The notes beneath the pieces were generated by a model. It did not search any database. It was not told where the DNA came from and saw only the letters and a program-made list of their open reading frames with translations. The translations under genes and the position numbers were made by a program. Positions 1 to 9,572 of a stretch of DNA of 9,572 bases are shown here, one piece after another (position 1 is the first letter of the stretch; each line of letters starts with the position of its first letter). Source of the DNA: a virus (lineage: Duplodnaviria; Heunggongvirae; Uroviricota; Caudoviricetes); the IMG/VR virus record IMGVR_UViG_2778261569_000018. One strand, 5' to 3'.

Positions 1-558
<558 letters not shown>

Positions 559-905
559 GACTGAAGATAATGTGATTGCTCCCGCCTGCTCAACACTCTG
601 TGATCGATACGAATCAGTTCGTACTTATCTACTAGGAAGTTGACTGTATCGGCTAAGGGGAATCCCGTTTTCAATATGTACCTTCATAACAGTGTCGTCA
701 ATGCGCTGCGTATCGTTAAGAGTCAGGCTGTAGTGTTTGTCCTGCAGGTATGTAACTAGGGGCTGTCAGACGGTTACAGAGGACTTCGCCACACGTTTTC
801 GGAATATAGGTAAAATTCTCATCGTCGGTTATTCTGCGAATAAAAGAAATTAATTGCGGACGGGTTTTTCGCGGTACGTCACTGTCGTATGGCAGCCAGC
901 GTATC
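559..905 (-). pseudogene. cbtA: CbtA/YkfI/YpjF-family toxin remnant, frameshifted and 3'-truncated by the IS insertion at 558
   Basis: Minus-strand translation of about 628-765 gives QPLVTYLQDKHYSLTLNDTQRIDDTVMKVHIENGIPL, then stop. A different frame from about 653 to 559 gives ADTVNFLVDKYELIRIDHRVLSRREQSHYLQ and runs straight into the IS end. This matches the central region of CbtA/YkfI toxins as recalled. The N-terminal region is not recognisable in any frame and there is no intact ORF of 60 aa or more. Confidence 0.55.
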
Positions 906-910
906 TTGGT

Positions 911-1319
911 TTATGCCCTGCTCCGTATTGTTATGTCGGTCGGTATGGCATAATGCAGTCCTAGCTTTTTCATCGCTGGCAAATGTACCAGTGCGAACCG
1001 AAGGGGGGATTCACCGATCATCCTTTTCGCATACAGCGTGACGGTCTGCTGATGACGGGGATTCAGTTCACCGCTGGTGAACATGAGTTCCAGTTGTTTC
1101 ATCAGCAGTGGAAAGGCTTGGTCCAGATGGTATGCATCCGCATCGCTGAACCGGCCTCTGATACCGGCGCGGTCTGCAAGGTAATGCAACTGATTGCCCT
1201 CCTGCACCAGACGGGCGCCAAAACGGGGTGTCACTGTCACGAACGGTGCAGGGCAGCCCCCACCAGGGGCGGTCGTGATTGTCGTCGGGATAATTTGTTT
1301 CATGGAGCGTGTCTGACAC
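911..1319 (-). pseudogene. cbeA: CbeA (YeeU)-like antitoxin with an internal frameshift
   Basis: N-terminus MSDTLHETNYPDDNHDRPWWGLPCTV is in one frame (GTG start at 1317-1319). The rest, TPRFGARLVQEGNQLHYLADRAGIRGRFSDADAYHLDQAFPLLMKQLELMFTSGELNPRHQQTVTLYAK..., is in a second frame. The shift maps to 1229-1244, where there is an apparent 10-nt insertion containing a GTGACA GTGACA tandem duplication. The open frame also runs past the expected C-terminus to 911. Confidence 0.7.
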
Positions 1320-1398
1320 GATAAAATCCTCACAGAAAATCGGTTAAGAACGGTCAGGTAATGTCGATAATTCTGCTCATCAGAATGCCCTTACTGAC

Positions 1399-1620
1399 TC
1401 AGTTCAGAGTGACGCTCATCAGCCGGACATACGGGCCAAAACTGTCCTTACGGCGTTCTGCAAACACGGCCAGCACACCGGGAATATTCTGCACTTCACG
1501 ACCGGTATACGCCTTAGCACTGCCGTGCCAGCGGTATTTGCCGGTACAGAACGGAAAAAGACGGGATGCAGGATGCTGTTGGTGAATACGCATGGCTTCA
1601 CCACGGGTGATGATTTTCAT
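1399..1620 (-). CDS. yeeT: YeeT/YkfH/YpjJ-family protein (DUF987)
   Basis: 73-aa ORF MKIITRGEAMRIHQQHP...VRLMSVTLN with ATG start, near-identical to my recollection of E. coli YeeT. Sits in the conserved position between the RadC-like gene and the antitoxin. Confidence 0.85.
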   Translation of the reverse strand: MKIITRGEAMRIHQQHPASRLFPFCTGKYRWHGSAKAYTGREVQNIPGVLAVFAERRKDSFGPYVRLMSVTLN

Positions 1621-1688
1621 GGTGTGATACCTCTGAAGACAGAAGATAAAAGTGAAAACAGGTGTGATGTGGTGGTGACGGTGACGGG

Positions 1689-2165
1689 TTAAAGCAGACC
1701 ATGTTCGGCAAAGGAGAAAACCTGGTTGCCACCAACTATCAGATGGTCCGGCACCCGGATATCCACCAGGCCCAGTGCCTGTACCAGACGTTCCGTGATA
1801 AGGCGGTCTGCCTTGCTGGGTGTGACTTCACCGGACGGGTGATTGTGTGCCAGCACCACGGCTGCGGCATTGTGGTACAGGGCGCGTTTAATCACTTCCC
1901 GGGGATGGACTTCCGTGCGGTTGATGGTGCCGGTGAAGAGGGTTTCACCGGCAATCAGCTGATTCTGGTTGTTCAGATACAGCACCCGGAATTCTTCACG
2001 CTCCAGTCCCGCCATGTTCAGAATCAGCCATTCCCGTGCCGTACGGGTGGAGGTGAAGGCCACGCCGGGTTCATGAAGATGGCGGTCCAGGGTTTTCAGG
2101 GCCCGCAGAATGAGGCTGCGCTCTCTGGTTGTCATTTCTCCGGGCAGAAAGGAAAGCTGCTGCAT
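1689..2165 (-). CDS. yeeS: RadC-like JAB-domain protein (YeeS/YkfG/YfjY family)
   Basis: 158-aa ORF with the JAB/MPN metal-binding motif HNHPSG and the conserved RadC-like C-terminus. ATG start at 2163-2165 preceded by AAGGGGG. Confidence 0.88.
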   Translation of the reverse strand: MQQLSFLPGEMTTRERSLILRALKTLDRHLHEPGVAFTSTRTAREWLILNMAGLEREEFRVLYLNNQNQLIAGETLFTGTINRTEVHPREVIKRALYHNAAAVVLAHNHPSGEVTPSKADRLITERLVQALGLVDIRVPDHLIVGGNQVFSFAEHGLL

Positions 2166-2180
2166 TGTTCCGGCCCCCTT

Positions 2181-2666
2181 TCAGTCGATGATGCGCATAA
2201 TGGCGTTGCATTCCGGATGCTGCAGGGCGTAATCCCGCAGCCGGTAATAATGGACCGTCATGGCATAACACTCCGTACGACAGGCATGATGGCTGTACGT
2301 CATCAGACAGGCGGCAATACCGGCGGCTTCCGGGCTCATTTCAGCGCGGTTACCGTTCATGGCATTGAACAGTACCCATGTTTCTCCATCATCTTCATCC
2401 GGTTCTGGAGCCATAAATGCCCCGCCGTTGTTCAGGGTGTACAGATTCCAGATACCACCACAGTAGTCTTCGCAAAGACGGTCCATCCAGCCGAAGATAC
2501 GGGGCTCCAGGGTCACCCACTGTGAAATGAGGCCAAAATGTTGCGGCCAGAAGCTGATGCGCTGTTCATCAGGGACGAGAGTAGCAACCAGCTGAGGTGG
2601 GTTATTCCCTGATGCAGCGGTTACGGAAACAGAAGGTGTGGTGGAATTATGCGTAACGGTTGTCAT
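2181..2666 (-). CDS. Antirestriction protein, KlcA/ArdB-like (YfjX/YafX family)
   Basis: 161-aa ORF; the region WNLYTLNNGGAFMAPEPDEDDGETWVLFN...MTYSHHA matches the island-borne antirestriction family as recalled. Conserved position directly upstream of the RadC-like gene. Confidence 0.8.
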   Translation of the reverse strand: MTTVTHNSTTPSVSVTAASGNNPPQLVATLVPDEQRISFWPQHFGLISQWVTLEPRIFGWMDRLCEDYCGGIWNLYTLNNGGAFMAPEPDEDDGETWVLFNAMNGNRAEMSPEAAGIAACLMTYSHHACRTECYAMTVHYYRLRDYALQHPECNAIMRIID

Positions 2667-2757
2667 GAGATTATTCCTTATAAAAAGTAAATGAATGGAA
2701 GAATGCCCGGGGGAAGGGACAGCCGTGAGTCAGGACTGCGCTTTCAGGGAAAAGGCA

Positions 2758-3576
2758 TCAGCGCATGCTCTCCAGCAGCGTTTCTGCCATCACCCACAAT
2801 GCCCGGTTGAGCTTAATGTCGGTATCGATGCTGTGAATGGCACGGGTGTGGATACGTTTTCCTTTTGCACTGCGACCGGAAAGCCCGCCTTTCAGCATAT
2901 TCTCCTGGATGGTCTGATAAGCACTCCACAGGTCCTTACCGTAATCCTCCCTGCGTCGTGGTGTCAGAATGTCGGCGGTGGTGACGGGCTGATGTTCGTC
3001 ACCATAACGGTAAGTCAGTGCCGCCTGTGCCAGCGCCTGGCGTGCCGGTGGCGGCAGGACCAGCGACTGCATGGCATCACGCTTCTCCTCTATCCGGTCA
3101 AACACACCCACCACCTCGTAAGCCCCTTCAATGACTCTGTCCACCACATTTCCCCGGTGCGGAACACGCACTTCCCCCAGAGACTGACCACAGACGCAGC
3201 CGTTCTGGCAGACGAATCTGAAGTAACCCGGCAGCATCTGGTAGCTGGAGGTACCGTCATGGGAGTTGAGCAGAATAATTTCAGGGACATGTTGTCCGTT
3301 TATCTCCCCGTCACGGCGCAGACGCAGCATGTGTTTGGTATACCCCCGGCGGCCCGGGTCACGTACGCGGGTCTGGCAGGCGAAGAATGGCTGAAAGCCT
3401 TCCCGCTGCAGGCTTTCCAGCACTGTGATGGTGGGGATGTACGAATACCGTTCACTGCGGGAGGTATGCCGGTCTTCCCCAAAAATGCTGGGAACATAGT
3501 GCATCAGTTCTTCATGGGTCAGTGGGCGGTCACGGCGTATCTGATTAATCCGTCCGAAGCGACTGGCTAATCGCAT
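2758..3576 (-). CDS. DUF932-domain protein (YfjQ/YafZ family)
   Basis: The ORF-track frame extends to 3636, but the family N-terminus MRLASRFGRINQIRRDRPL begins at the ATG at 3574-3576, which has AAGGAG 6 nt upstream. The upstream extension overlaps a terminator hairpin. 273 aa as annotated. Confidence 0.8.
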   Translation of the reverse strand: MRLASRFGRINQIRRDRPLTHEELMHYVPSIFGEDRHTSRSERYSYIPTITVLESLQREGFQPFFACQTRVRDPGRRGYTKHMLRLRRDGEINGQHVPEIILLNSHDGTSSYQMLPGYFRFVCQNGCVCGQSLGEVRVPHRGNVVDRVIEGAYEVVGVFDRIEEKRDAMQSLVLPPPARQALAQAALTYRYGDEHQPVTTADILTPRRREDYGKDLWSAYQTIQENMLKGGLSGRSAKGKRIHTRAIHSIDTDIKLNRALWVMAETLLESMR

Positions 3577-3600
3577 AATTAACTCCTTATCTGATAATGA

Positions 3601-3640
3601 AATAAAAGCAAAAAGGCCATGTCCCCGGAGGAACATGGCC
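3601..3640 (-). terminator. Rho-independent terminator downstream of the 312-aa secreted-protein gene
   Basis: Minus strand reads GGCCATGT-(10 nt loop)-ACATGGCC (8-bp perfect stem, 3615-3622 with 3633-3640) followed by TTTTTGCTTTTATT (3601-3614). Confidence 0.6.
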
Positions 3641-3665
3641 TGATGGAATATATTATTGCTGATGA

Positions 3666-4604
3666 TTAATGTTGCTGATTTTTCTCTTTAACTTTTGACC
3701 ATGAGGGGCGTCGGTTGCCGGAAAATTCCTTCTGCATTGACCAGTAACCAATCGGGAACTGCTTCACCAGCACCCCGTTGATACCAATATCGACGGACAG
3801 ATACTGACCGTTGTTGATGCTGCCCTTGCGGATGTACGCATCCGCACTGCAGGTGCCGGTATCATACTGCCGCCATGTTGCGGTATCGCGGGCGGCAACA
3901 TAAAAATCACCGAAAGCACAGCCCGTTGCTGACTTACGATTCAGAACGGCAACGTAATACTTAGTGTTGGCTATAATGGCGCAACTGCTGCTCTGACCGC
4001 CGCAGACCTGCCATAACGTTTTGCTGCTGTCACCCTTAAAGGTCCAGATAGTGTCTGCCGGTGCGCCGTCTGTATGTGTTACTGGCAATGCCGGAGCCTG
4101 CTGCACTGGTGTAACGTCGGGTACGTCGCGGCGTAATAGTCGTGCTTCAGCATCCCCGACATCGCCAAACATGTTTTCCTCTCCGCTGTTGTAATAAAAA
4201 CCGGCAATAACATGTTCTGAGGGGATATACAGTATTTTCAGATAATGGTCACCGCAATTACCCCGCTCACAGACAGACCCCAGCAGCCACTTCTCGTCAC
4301 CAACGACCACCGGAATTAATCCACTGTCAGGGCCGTTCATGGAGCCCTGTTTTCCCGTTAACCCGGTGAGTCCTGCTGACTTCAGCGCATCATCAAGGTC
4401 TTTCTTGAATACCGGGTCGGCATCGTAGATACTGCCCAGAAAGGGGCAGGAACCGTATCCGTTTTCATTATCACCAGCATCAGGATCACAGCGCATTGCA
4501 TCTGCTGCCGTTTTTGCGACACCGGCAGCGTAAACTCCGGTGGAAATAAAACAAAGCGAGGATATCAGTATTATCTGTTTTAATTTACGTAATACAAGAA
4601 ACAT
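3666..4604 (-). CDS. Secreted two-domain protein of unknown function; N-terminal domain carries an Ivy-like C-x4-C-G motif
   Basis: 312-aa ORF with ATG start. N-terminal signal peptide (hydrophobic core IILISSLCFISTGVYA, likely cleavage after VYA; no canonical lipobox). Cys-rich mature protein with VCERGNCGDHYLKILY motif. Terminator immediately downstream. Confidence 0.7.
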   Translation of the reverse strand: MFLVLRKLKQIILISSLCFISTGVYAAGVAKTAADAMRCDPDAGDNENGYGSCPFLGSIYDADPVFKKDLDDALKSAGLTGLTGKQGSMNGPDSGLIPVVVGDEKWLLGSVCERGNCGDHYLKILYIPSEHVIAGFYYNSGEENMFGDVGDAEARLLRRDVPDVTPVQQAPALPVTHTDGAPADTIWTFKGDSSKTLWQVCGGQSSSCAIIANTKYYVAVLNRKSATGCAFGDFYVAARDTATWRQYDTGTCSADAYIRKGSINNGQYLSVDIGINGVLVKQFPIGYWSMQKEFSGNRRPSWSKVKEKNQQH

Positions 4605-4632
4605 GATTATTTTTACTCCATCCTGTTTATAT

Positions 4633-4660
4633 AAAAGAAACGGGCTCCGTGAAGAGCCCT
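4633..4660 (-). terminator. Rho-independent terminator downstream of the 136-aa secreted-protein gene
   Basis: Minus strand reads GGGCTC-TTCACG-GAGCCC (6-bp GC stem, 4642-4647 with 4654-4659) followed by GTTTCTTTT (4633-4640). Confidence 0.5.
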
Positions 4661-4669
4661 GTAAAAAAT

Positions 4670-5080
4670 TTAAAAGTCAATGGTATTAAGACCAACATTC
4701 TTTTTGATGGAGGGATCGTAAATAACAACGGTAAGATGGTCTTTGTCTGAAGAACGGACAAACTTAGCGGTGGCCTCACCACTGCATGTTGCATGACGGT
4801 TATAATCCATCATTTTACCTTTGCTGGTAGCAAGATTGACAACGATGATATAAGGATCATAACAGGCCGAACCTCCCGGACTGCTCAGCAAGGCATATTT
4901 GCCATCATCAGAGACACCAATGAGGCTGCATATCCCGTCTTTTATATCCTCACTTCCGCACATCTGCTCACTTCCATCTTTCACATCAATCACAGTACGG
5001 GGTAATTTAACCTCTGTAGCATTAACTGATGCACTCAACAACAAACCTGAAACTATTAATGACAATATAAACGCTTTCAT
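4670..5080 (-). CDS. Small secreted protein of unknown function
   Basis: 136-aa ORF. Signal peptide MKAFILSLIVSGLLLSASVNA with predicted cleavage before TEV. Four Cys in the mature part. ATG start overlaps the primase stop (ATGA). Local sequence is visibly more AT-rich than its neighbours. Confidence 0.7.
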   Translation of the reverse strand: MKAFILSLIVSGLLLSASVNATEVKLPRTVIDVKDGSEQMCGSEDIKDGICSLIGVSDDGKYALLSSPGGSACYDPYIIVVNLATSKGKMMDYNRHATCSGEATAKFVRSSDKDHLTVVIYDPSIKKNVGLNTIDF

Positions 5081-5895
5081 ATACTCATCCTGTTTATCAT
5101 TACGGGGGATATATTCCTTTTATTCTGGGCGACATATAACAGGTTCCCGGCATCAATCGCCGCCACTGTCAGCGCCTCTGGACGAATTAAATGGGCAGAT
5201 AATGCCGTTGCCAGCCCTTCTGCGATTAAGATGCTCTGTGTTGTTTCTGGCGCGTTTATGGCGTGATATGCCCCCCGCTTTGCTGAACCTGTCAGGAGTC
5301 TTTTTTCACCATGTGATGTAATAGTCTGTGCTGCTGTGACTGCGCCGGATTTATCCACCAGCGCCAGCAACAGAGATCCATCGGGCAACACGGGGAATGT
5401 AAAATCACCTACCCCTTTCGCAACCAGATAATCAGATTTGCCGTTTACAGCCTTTCTGCGCATGTCATCAAACTGACGGGAAAACGTATCCCGTCTTTGT
5501 TGTTCGTCCTTCTCTGCCCTTTTCAGGCGCTCCTGTTCGCGTCGCTGGCGCTCGGTTTCCAGTTGTTCCCGTTTCTGGCTGGTGGCTTCTGGTGTTTCCG
5601 TTGTCCGGTAATCAATACCCAGAACATCAGCGGCAAGAAGCGCCGCCTCTGTTGTGTCGCAGTTATTTACGCGTTTAATTAAATCCAGCCCATCACCAGC
5701 GCCGCACTGATTACAGATGAAGCTACCGCGCCCGTTGTCATCGAACCGGAATCGATCTTTGCCCCCACATGCAGGGCAGGGAGCATGACGGCGCGGAGAG
5801 TCAGGGACATTTATGTTCAGGCAGCCCAGCACATGAGGCCAGTTGTTTTCAGACGCACTGATAACCTGACGGATAAGATCAATGTTTCGCATCAC
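5077..5895 (-). CDS. Primase-like protein: N-terminal zinc ribbon (primase-helicase type), coiled-coil linker, C-terminal Toprim-like region
   Basis: 272-aa ORF. CPACGGKDRFRFDDNGRGSFICNQCGAGDG is a four-Cys zinc ribbon of the kind found at the N-terminus of phage and plasmid primases. Charged linker QKREQLETERQRREQERLKRAEKDEQQRRD. C-terminal ILIAEGLATALS and AIDAG resemble Toprim acidic motifs. Confidence 0.75.
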   Translation of the reverse strand: MMRNIDLIRQVISASENNWPHVLGCLNINVPDSPRRHAPCPACGGKDRFRFDDNGRGSFICNQCGAGDGLDLIKRVNNCDTTEAALLAADVLGIDYRTTETPEATSQKREQLETERQRREQERLKRAEKDEQQRRDTFSRQFDDMRRKAVNGKSDYLVAKGVGDFTFPVLPDGSLLLALVDKSGAVTAAQTITSHGEKRLLTGSAKRGAYHAINAPETTQSILIAEGLATALSAHLIRPEALTVAAIDAGNLLYVAQNKRNISPVMINRMSI

Positions 5896-7411: not shown

Positions 7412-7671
7412 TTCGCACTCTCCACATCGATTAAACCGATATCTATCAGGGAGGTAACTTTTTGTAGCCAGCTATTGATTACTGTCGCCTGTTCCCCGCC
7501 CACCGAGGGAACAATCTCATTCATCACATGAACCAGACCTGTGCGCGCTCTGGTAAGCCGTTCAGTCGCGCAATCTGCGGGAGTGAATGTGTCTGGATAT
7601 GGCTCTTCACGCCCCAGCAATGATTCAATTTCCAGCTCACACGGATGACGATAAATTAAGTTGATATTCAT
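7408..7671 (-). CDS. Hypothetical small protein, 87 aa
   Basis: ATG start at 7669-7671 overlapping the upstream stop (ATGA). Confidence 0.55.
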   Translation of the reverse strand: MNINLIYRHPCELEIESLLGREEPYPDTFTPADCATERLTRARTGLVHVMNEIVPSVGGEQATVINSWLQKVTSLIDIGLIDVESAK

Positions 7672-7862
7672 TTTTCACCCCCAAGAATTACCAGCTCGGC
7701 ACGGGCATCGTTAACCAAAGATGAGCACGCTTTAATCGCATCCACGACATCAGTAGCGTCCATTTCTTCAGCCGAAAGACTGACAGCAACCAGGACAGCC
7801 GCTGCTTGCTCGATTAATTGAAGTGCGGACGTAAGGCGAGGGGTATTAATTGAGTTATTCAT
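7668..7862 (-). CDS. Hypothetical small acidic protein, about 64 aa
   Basis: The ORF-track frame extends to 7919, but the ATG at 7860-7862 (MNNSINTPRL...) makes an 8-nt ATGAATAA overlap with the upstream gene's stop at 7855-7857. Confidence 0.5.
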   Translation of the reverse strand: MNNSINTPRLTSALQLIEQAAAVLVAVSLSAEEMDATDVVDAIKACSSLVNDARAELVILGGEK

Positions 7863-8073
7863 TGGTTGCCCCCGTTTTTCCTGGCATTTCGCCACCTTCC
7901 AGCAGGAAATGAACGTCACGAACGGCGAGATCCAATATCGCGAGTAACGCCTTCAGTCTTTCGTCTCGTGAGGGAGAGTTGCTCACCAGAATGTCGTTAA
8001 TCACTTCTGTCAGTGTGATGATCTGGCTTGTGCGTTCGAGGGGATCCATATGCACATCGTAGGTTTTAATCAT
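7855..8073 (-). CDS. Hypothetical small protein, 72 aa
   Basis: ATG at 8071-8073 (MIKTYDVHMDPLERTSQ...) preceded by GGAGGTG with a 4-6 nt spacer. It is the C-terminal part of the 355-aa ORF-track frame, but the strong internal RBS and the rare-codon run upstream argue for a separate gene. Confidence 0.55.
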   Translation of the reverse strand: MIKTYDVHMDPLERTSQIITLTEVINDILVSNSPSRDERLKALLAILDLAVRDVHFLLEGGEMPGKTGATNE

Positions 8074-8260
8074 GTGCCACCTCCATGCGGATACGACCAG
8101 CAAAAAAGCAGATGTGATCGCGCACCAGAGAACGGCGAGCATCGCGTTCAGACTCGGCAGCAATATGATGAATTTTGGCGGTAATTGTCGGGCAATCGCG
8201 GCGAACTGCGGCGATAATCCAGATAAATTGCGGTTTTTGGGTAGGGGTAGTAGCCAGCAT
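8066..8260 (-). CDS. Hypothetical small protein, 64 aa
   Basis: ATG at 8258-8260 ([22 protein letters not shown]...) preceded by AAGGAGG with a 7-nt spacer. Codon usage in this frame is good, while the alternative frame here has CTA CTA CCC CTA. Stop TAA at 8066-8068 overlaps the next start (ATGATTAA). The ORF-track start at 8407 is a TTG. Confidence 0.55.
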   Translation of the reverse strand: MLATTPTQKPQFIWIIAAVRRDCPTITAKIHHIAAESERDARRSLVRDHICFFAGRIRMEVAHD

Positions 8261-8922
8261 GTGGCAGCCTCCTTGTACTGGGAGTTCTTCCCACCACCGG
8301 AGCTGCGAAACTCGCTGGTGGTGGACTGAACAGAGTTCGCAGTACCGGCGTACAAGGAAACCGGCCAGCCTTTCGGCTGCCCTGTCCAGCCCACCATAAT
8401 TTTGCAAGCGACGCGGATTATAACCGCATCACTGAAAAAAGTGTGAGTCTGGCTAACGGCACAAAAAAAGACGCTCGGCGCGTCATGTGTCGCCTCGTAC
8501 ATTTCCGGGCTGCGAAACCCGGCACCCGTTTTATGAGGTGCCTTATAACCATAAACCGTGTTGCCGCATAACGGCAAGCTCTTTTTTATGGACTCCGAAA
8601 ACTCACTATTGGAAGCACCAGATGCACAATACATCGCGCTCATTTCGTTAACGTCGCGCGTGTGGACGAAGGTTTTTGTGGAGTCACTACGCGAGCAGAG
8701 AAAGCCATCTACGACCAGAAATTCTCTGGCGCAGCCGCCGACCTTCTCAACGCTAACACCATCGACCGTAATTTCTGACATAGTTAAGGCATCCGCTCCC
8801 ACCACCAGAAAATGATAAACTTTGCTTGTATCTGCTGTATTAATGCCAGACTTTGCTGTCATATTGCTGGATTTTGGCGACATACCAGCCAGTGAAAATA
8901 TCTTCTTCTGGACGGTTAGCAT
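8254..8922 (-). CDS. Hypothetical protein of about 220 aa, first gene of the operon; 3' end unresolved because the frame has no stop before 7855
   Basis: ATG at 8920-8922 preceded by GGAGG with a 7-nt spacer. Plausible codon usage from 8922 to about 8260. No family recognised. Confidence 0.4.
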
Positions 8923-9014
8923 TTGTTAACCTCCGCGAACTCCTTCATGAAGCGCGCCAGCGGTTGTACGCATGGCGATTGATACCCGTCGCGATAAAAC
9001 GTCACTCGGTTGTG

Positions 9015-9572
<558 letters not shown>

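Follow-up and report, generated by a model that had tools for sequence, protein, structure and literature searches.

The stretch of DNA analysed here, called the window, comprises 9,572 nt from the IMG/VR virus record IMGVR_UViG_2778261569_000018 (Caudoviricetes). The part of it with which this work is concerned, which is read on the minus strand and for which all coordinates are window positions, belongs to a P4-like satellite prophage, of which it forms the immunity and early region. This region contains a long open reading frame (ORF) of 355 codons and a stop (7855..8922, minus strand), named 'ash family protein' in other annotations, which is probably a read-through frame of the type of the P4 gene eta. 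It runs over a module of two regulatory RNAs, C4 and isrK, and, in a variant that is out of phase with the icd gene located downstream, crosses this gene and merges with the next one. As judged from the relatives compared, the frame is kept open by selection although its sequence is not conserved, and it appears that the openness of the frame, not an encoded product, is what selection preserves. This type of arrangement is known from P4. As far as found, the out-of-phase variant is apparently undescribed: the literature searched, including that on 'ash family protein' and PF10554, gave no description of the offset variant or of comparative evidence for selection on openness only.

A long frame over two RNA genes and icd

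In the list of ORFs, the long frame opens with an ATG at 8922 and proceeds without any internal stop to the TAA at 7857-7855, as stated by the original prediction, and the GGAGG ribosome-binding site (RBS) attributed to this start is present at 8934-8930, 7 nt ahead of the ATG. However, this ORF is not the first gene of its operon, as had been proposed, since a DUF4222 gene sits upstream and its stop codon overlaps the ATG (ATGCTAA, 8922-8916). The other elements described in the prediction were also found, namely a 64-codon gene in a different frame with an AAGGAGG motif (ORF 8260..8066; motif at 8274-8268), an in-frame 72-aa (amino acid) gene at 8073 with its own strong RBS (GGAGGTGG at 8084-8077) and the rare codons CTA CTA CCC CTA; very rare codons represent 15% of the part of the long ORF that overlaps icd versus 1-4% upstream. 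The claim that four of the six frames are open over 8074-8410 was overstated: only two minus-strand frames are devoid of stops, one more minus-strand frame and one plus-strand frame carrying one stop each and the remaining plus-strand frames four and six.

Hundreds of complete Escherichia coli genomes contain the 1068-nt ORF with an identity of at least 99%, so that it does not result from a read error. A length of exactly 1068 nt is also displayed by two relatives in which the 204-nt cassette inside the ORF diverges by about 40%. A search with the long-ORF protein, which yields a homologue set biased towards long ORFs, retrieved homologues of 330-355 aa in Escherichia, Klebsiella, Raoultella and Pluralibacter. 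In the alignment of these homologues, the 105 N-terminal residues cannot be aligned between lineages and the similarity starts just upstream of isrK. The only Pfam match in the long ORF, PF10554 (Phage_ASH; residues 124-232, 99 bits for a cutoff of 26), covers the same bases as the isrK and C4 RNA genes. AlphaFold gives a mean predicted local distance difference test score (pLDDT) of 33, with residues 1-299 below 50 and the 72-aa tail alone above 50, which is weak evidence because the alignment is shallow (16 rows).

Both RNA genes are carried by the strand of the long ORF. The isrK or seqA-type RNA (8464..8541, minus strand; Rfam RF01394, 69 bits for a gathering threshold of 50) includes an intrinsic terminator, detected by a terminator scan (stem at 8484-8470, followed by a T run). 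The C4 or P4-CI-type antisense immunity RNA (8314..8401, minus strand; Rfam RF01695, 81 bits for a gathering threshold of 45) carries the recognition loop CCTTGTAC at 8357-8350. This loop is complementary to a first target, TGTACGAGG, located inside isrK (8501-8493; 9-nt duplex), and a second target, GTACAAGGAGGCTG, that overlaps the icd RBS (8265..8278, minus strand; 14-nt duplex, G-U pairs allowed). In the loci selected by their Icd protein (see below), Rfam detects C4 in 18 out of 18 and isrK in 17 out of 18, and it detects both RNAs in P4. In the C4 consensus structure, 98.5% of the cells are paired versus 33-52% in slid controls, and 16 pairs are changed on both sides, a level that none of 500 shuffles reaches. 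Furthermore, the C4 loop co-varies with both targets, the icd RBS and the isrK site, with at least 10 specificities across the loci. These comparisons establish that the isrK and C4 RNAs are real and under structural selection. In two relatives (L145 and L147), the cassette including isrK, C4 and the target (8261-8463) is about 40% different, whereas the flanks differ by less than 3%, which indicates that immunity specificity has been exchanged by recombination.

An internal promoter equivalent to the P4 promoter PLE is inferred at 8548..8577 (minus strand) from the alignment of its hexamers with those of P4. Its -35 (TTGCCG, 8577-8572) and -10 (TATGGT, 8553-8548) are separated by an 18-nt spacer, 6 nt separate the -10 from G8541, and the whole is conserved position for position in 17 relatives and P4. 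A scan for the generic promoter consensus did not report the 8548..8577 promoter, which was located through the P4 alignment. A perfect inverted repeat, TTGCCG-ttatg-CGGCAA (8561-8577), spans the -35; it is absent in most relatives and, on the plus strand, is scored as a hairpin resembling a terminator.

The Icd/Kil-like gene (8066..8260, minus strand; 64 codons and a stop) matches the NCBIfam model NF033153 with 70 bits for a cutoff of 25. Over icd, the ratio of non-synonymous to synonymous substitution rates (dN/dS) in the Icd-selected loci is 0.16-0.25 for the frame of icd itself, compared with 1.7-1.9 for the long frame and 2.1-2.4 for the remaining one, and 52 of the 55 third codon positions of icd are variable. 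The contrast of dN/dS between the frames identifies icd as the selected protein in the overlap and shows it to be a genuine gene on which purifying selection acts. The Prokaryotic Genome Annotation Pipeline (PGAP) annotates an Icd-like gene in NZ_CP169023.

Openness and phase of the frame in relatives

Relatives were collected by means of the 64-aa Icd protein only. The first sample includes 18 loci from 18 genomes, thus 19 with the window, to which one of them (L007, a phase-2 locus as defined below) is essentially identical. An Icd profile then gave 160 further loci from metagenome and viral collections, leading to a total of 133 distinct sequences. Phases and spacings were measured from an ATG that lies inside C4 (8397-8395) in the frame of the long ORF and that is invariant in the 19 sequences of the first sample.

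In all 19 loci, no stop interrupts the frame of the C4 ATG between icd and a point at least 228 nt upstream of this ATG, whereas only seven and two loci lack stops in the other two frames over the interval that separates the C4 ATG from icd. The spacings from isrK to C4 are all multiples of three. In 15 of the 19 loci, the first ATG of the long ORF overlaps the stop of the upstream gene, by an ATGA or an ATGnnTAA type of junction. In contrast, other phages that carry a genuine C4, such as the P1-like phage D6 and several IMG/VR contigs, display stops in the corresponding frame. The control draws on a scan of viral contigs for a short C4 DNA pattern, 13 of the 124 resulting loci being C4 matches and the rest mostly chance occurrences. 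As genuine C4 RNAs tolerate stops elsewhere, the constraint on the RNA alone does not hold the frame open.

Two main phases are distinguished by the number of nucleotides between the ATG of C4 and that of icd. P4 and 11 of the 18 loci have a multiple of three (phase 0), and their long frame shares the stop of icd. The seven remaining loci and the window have a value of 2 modulo 3 (phase 2), and their long frame crosses icd; the distance is 137 nt in the window, compared with 138 nt in the P4 type. In all the phase-2 loci except L019, the frame continues into the next gene; in L019, it stops 4 nt after icd, just within the next gene, and in the window it ends 211 nt past the icd stop.

The larger sample displays the same partition, with 64 of the 133 sequences in phase 0, 68 in phase 2 and a single one in phase 1. 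The frame is open upstream through isrK in 129 of the 132 phase-0 or phase-2 sequences. Across icd, openness follows the phase: the +1 frame relative to icd is open in 66 of 67 phase-2 sequences versus 11 of 64 phase-0 sequences, and the third frame is open in one phase-2 and four phase-0 sequences. In one divergent locus, L023, the offset frame is open although its Icd protein makes this improbable (0.01-0.02). The tree of icd sequences implies at least 15 changes of phase, compared with about 44 when the labels are shuffled, and at least three different indel patterns account for the offset between the phases.

Only two sequences, both metagenome contigs, depart from the rule of an open long frame. 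In L174, this frame is interrupted by a stop codon 73 nt after the icd start, and L156, whose coverage is about 1x, has a 136-nt spacing and is the sole phase-1 sequence. As their Icd proteins are 97-100% identical to that of the window type, these exceptions are probably recent mutations or read errors.

Proposed mechanism and its implications

The role proposed for the long frame is borrowed from P4. According to the summary given in PMC10111431 of Forti et al. (1999, J Bacteriol 181:5225), a constitutive promoter lies within the P4 eta gene, and the transcripts that it initiates end early via the CI and seqA RNA sites. The same summary presents Kil as a truncated form of Eta and full-length Eta as translated only from the upstream late promoter, by coupling to the upstream gene; it also reports that Eta translation prevents termination and that eta nonsense mutations are polar.

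On the minus strand of the window, the successive elements are the end of the upstream gene, the start of the long ORF coupled to it, the putative internal promoter, isrK with its terminator and C4. They are followed by the C4 target on the icd RBS, icd, small overlapping genes and the primase gene. If this region works as in P4, the transcripts from the internal promoter would normally be stopped early and the processed antisense RNA would block the translation of icd. The transcripts from the upstream promoter would bring ribosomes loaded at the coupled start at 8922. These ribosomes would cross the RNA module and icd, preventing Rho and the antisense RNA from stopping transcription, and the downstream replication genes would thereby be expressed despite immunity. 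With 137 nt instead of 138 nt from the C4 RNA to the icd ATG, the long frame is out of phase and does not end as an Eta-Kil fusion.

A more speculative proposal, which we regard as possible rather than probable, is that the one-base change of phase is an evolutionary toggle that has been flipped many times, the frame being open purely as a track for ribosomes and, here, bypassing the Kil/Icd frame. If so, translation from the late promoter would end as an Eta-Kil fusion in the phase-0 state, as in P4, whereas the offset state would deliver the ribosomes in frame into the next gene, and the expression of the replication genes would be uncoupled from the production of the killing protein.

Four layers are superimposed within a few hundred bases: a putative promoter, two regulatory RNAs, a toxin-like gene and a frame apparently selected for its openness. 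The widespread 'ash family protein' (PF10554) corresponds largely to two translated RNA genes, and the call of a 355-aa protein hides the Icd-like gene and the 72-aa gene. Furthermore, as about half of the P4-like elements sampled are out of phase, they offer a natural experiment on the question of whether eta acts by ribosome transit alone.

Strength of the evidence and alternative explanations

Several points weigh against the interpretation of the long ORF as an eta-type read-through frame. That the long frame is translated, and that this affects termination, is deduced from the experiments on P4, and the Rho-dependent terminator of the model was not located in the region. The icd tree rests on about 190 nt, so that recombination or errors in the tree may have inflated the 15 switches, and 57 of the 67 phase-2 sequences belong to one broad cluster (single linkage, distance below 10%). 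In most phase-2 loci, the chance that the offset frame is open, given the Icd protein, is 0.2-0.6. The N-terminal third displays a ratio of non-synonymous to synonymous differences (pN/pS) of 0.3-0.55, an ambiguous value since the differences are few and another frame gives a similar one. Finally, an IS1203 insertion severs the long ORF from its upstream operon in the window; the long frame is intact, and its natural promoter probably no longer serves it.

The long ORF could also never be translated, being a by-product of the constraints on the RNA genes, the promoter and icd that gene callers and Pfam turned into an 'Ash family'. The exact coincidence of the Ash match with the two RNA genes fits this explanation, as do the beginning of the amino-acid conservation where the promoter begins, the dN/dS of about 1.8 over icd, the lack of a predicted fold and the annotation of identical DNA by PGAP in two incompatible ways. 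We nevertheless consider it unlikely, because the frame contains no stop in diverse loci whereas the other two contain dozens, the differences in spacer length are all multiples of three, genuine C4 RNAs of other phages tolerate stops, the start overlaps the upstream stop in most loci and the openness of the offset frame follows the phase. It also fits poorly with the polarity reported for P4 eta nonsense mutations (PMC10111431) and with the detection as a tagged protein of the product of Gifsy-1 orf45, which has the same ATG and frame (PMC4825925).

Another explanation is that the 355-aa product itself matters, either as 'Ash' or as an N-terminally extended form of the 72-aa protein with a sequence-dependent role. 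In its favour, ORFs of 330-355 aa recur in Escherichia, Klebsiella, Raoultella and Pluralibacter, modest purifying selection acts on the 72-aa tail, for which a helical structure is predicted, and the N-terminal pN/pS is 0.3-0.55. However, the N-terminal third is unalignable between lineages, the middle is conserved only at the RNA and promoter elements, the part overlapping icd shows the evolution expected of an unused frame, the tail gene belongs to different families in different loci and also exists alone, and residues 1-299 have, for what a shallow alignment is worth, a pLDDT below 50; a functional long protein is therefore improbable. The original prediction had named, as what would refute it, homologues with the same uninterrupted frame as a conserved single protein and no separate 64-aa gene. 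Only half of this applies: uninterrupted frames are indeed found in homologues, but the long product is not conserved as one protein, and the 64-aa gene is genuine, with purifying selection acting on it. The prediction had also considered a fusion or a recoding arrangement. The arrangement is real, with two RNA genes and an internal promoter inside the frame and a counterpart in P4 eta. Recoding in the form of a programmed -1 shift of the ribosomes of the long frame near the icd start, which would restore an Eta-Kil fusion as in P4, is very unlikely. The icd frame is indeed -1 relative to the long frame and a strong Shine-Dalgarno-like AAGGAGG lies just upstream of the junction, but no canonical slippery heptamer was seen by inspection of 8280-8230, where no dedicated search was run, and, if frameshifting were the rule, the offset frame would not need to stay open across icd, whereas 66 of 67 sequences do have it open there. 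Lastly, a sequencing or assembly error, or a stop recently lost in a decaying prophage, had been suggested. The element is degenerate, with insertion sequences (ISs) and a truncated primase gene, and the whole window is contiguous in none of the complete genomes searched. Nevertheless, this explanation is refuted by the identity of the ORF in hundreds of complete genomes and by the same layout in 67 distinct sequences from many genera, the length and openness of the frame being kept across many genomes.

Genes located downstream of icd

The tail of the long ORF corresponds to a 72-codon gene (7855..8073, minus strand) whose ATG overlaps the icd stop (ATGATTAA, 8073-8066). As the ATG of this next gene is located 5 nt before the icd stop, the long frame reaches the end of the 72-codon gene. 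In this gene, pN/pS is 0.55 in its own frame versus 0.95 and 1.46 in the others, indicating modest purifying selection, and AlphaFold, from a shallow alignment, predicts a helical tail. Across the loci, the gene that follows icd has a conserved GGAGGTGG and belongs to different families. One of these families occurs as a separate gene in L015, an in-phase locus, and is fused to the long frame in L009, an offset locus. The own GGAGGTGG, the turnover of families and the existence of a stand-alone copy argue that the 72-codon gene is independent.

The next small gene (7668..7862, minus strand; 64 codons) has an ATG that overlaps the stop of the long ORF (ATGAATAA, 7862-7855). Overlapping stop/start junctions, including ATGATTAA, ATGAATAA and others, link the small genes from icd down to the primase gene (5895). 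No significant family match was found in the libraries used for the proteins of 72 aa (8073..7855), 64 aa (7862..7668) and 83 aa (7919..7668).

Genomic context and annotation

Intact copies of the element include, in this order, genes for an integrase, AlpA, AntA/B and DUF4222, the long-ORF region, the small genes and the primase gene, and adjoin a tRNA-Thr gene, an organisation that is that of P4-like satellite prophages. In the window, only the 3' remnant of the DUF4222 gene is present (8916..9017, minus strand; stop TAA at 8918-8916), as indicated by PGAP on identical DNA and by comparison with an intact copy. An IS1203 element at about 9018-9572 has removed the DUF4222 N-terminus, the insertion being located 95 nt upstream of the ATG of the long ORF, and genomes without this IS align with the window from 9014/9017.

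Two inverted copies of IS1203 (IS3 family) flank the content of the window (1-530 and 9018-9572) and carry identical transposase fragments (25..516, plus strand, and 9057..9548, minus strand). The whole window is contiguous in no complete E. coli genome of the collection: window 1-5127 and the P4-like right part map to separate places in O111 genomes, with a break at about 5077-5127, inside the primase-like ORF (5077..5895). Thus, the window may span an IS-mediated rearrangement or a junction that is absent from the collection. Another IS1203 copy interrupts the primase fragment at an earlier point in NZ_CP077460.

PGAP gives two different annotations of DNA identical to that of the window: a 355-aa 'ash family protein' in L001 (9139-10206), with icd and the 72-aa gene unannotated, and a truncated ash pseudogene together with a 'host cell division inhibitor Icd-like protein' in L002 (3234-3949). 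The 72-aa gene is unannotated in both.

Comparison with known systems

The closest known system is P4 itself. Its genome carries a 214-codon ORF (8812..8168) that runs through the isrK and C4 matches, carries a row of three Met codons (residues 16-18) and ends in a tail of 65 aa that remains in frame. The first of these Met codons overlaps the stop of the upstream vis/orf88 gene (ATGA). This ORF matches the published eta and kil genes. P4 Eta matches the Pfam Ash family (residues 37-161, 82 bits), and the Icd-like model NF033153 matches both the Kil part of P4 Eta and the 64-aa gene of the window. In the P4 reference record (L003), eta and kil are unannotated, and a coding sequence with the historical name 'cI gene product (AA 1-137)' is labelled as a transcriptional repressor (8168-8584); the P4 immunity factor is the CI RNA.

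Like P4 eta, the window ORF begins where the upstream gene stops, has an internal constitutive promoter at the same position (putative here, from the alignment), holds the isrK/seqA and C4/CI RNAs, matches Ash and is associated with an Icd/Kil-family gene, whose RBS is the antisense target in the window. From this shared layout and these matches, the long ORF proves to be a homologue of P4 eta. However, whereas kil is the in-frame end of eta in P4, with a common stop, the frame of the window is one base out, passes through icd in the +1 frame and reaches its stop only at the end of the next gene. Furthermore, its N-terminal part is unrelated in sequence to that of P4.

The Salmonella prophage Gifsy-1 (Hershko-Shalev et al. 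2016) harbours an isrK-orf45-anrP region with the same order as the window: isrK, a C4-like RNA (STnc1160) and a downstream gene. The nucleotide sequence of orf45 is conserved whereas its amino-acid sequence is variable (PMC4825925). The invariant ATG inside C4 (window 8397) aligns with the start of orf45, and the phase to the downstream ATG is the same, with 134 nt in Gifsy-1 and 137 nt in the window, both 2 modulo 3. However, the orf45 frame is closed just upstream of the ATG, whereas that of the window is open 525 nt upstream. In addition, orf45 has 45 codons and its TGA overlaps the next start (ATGA), a termination-reinitiation coupling, while the window reads acATGc at the icd start, so that its long frame meets no stop there and runs 134 codons further. 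A stop had been expected to lie normally near 8255-8262; this agrees with orf45, whose TGA overlaps the next ATG at this place, but not with the P4-like elements, in which the frame enters icd in phase or crosses it.

In the immI operon of phages P1 and P7 (c4, icd, ant; Citron, Schuster and colleagues; Rfam RF01695 and RF03163), the antisense RNA is cut from the transcript that it regulates, the c4 target covers the icd RBS and icd overlaps the following gene. The window shares with this operon an antisense target on the icd RBS and an icd gene that overlaps the next one. The P1-like phage D6, with stops in the corresponding frame, is devoid of a long read-through ORF.

In lambdoid phages, namely a Stx1 phage ('Ant'/Rha) and SfV (orf37), an Ash region with an embedded C4 is part of a long ORF that runs in frame into a downstream domain. 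In the Stx1 phage (L005, 1275-2297), the Ash ORF continues into a Rha domain and is named 'Ant'; in SfV (L006, 1143-1979), orf37 is labelled 'immunity region'. Unlike in the window, the downstream partner in these phages is a Rha/Ant-type regulator instead of icd and a small gene. The read-through design may extend beyond P4-like satellites to lambdoid phages.

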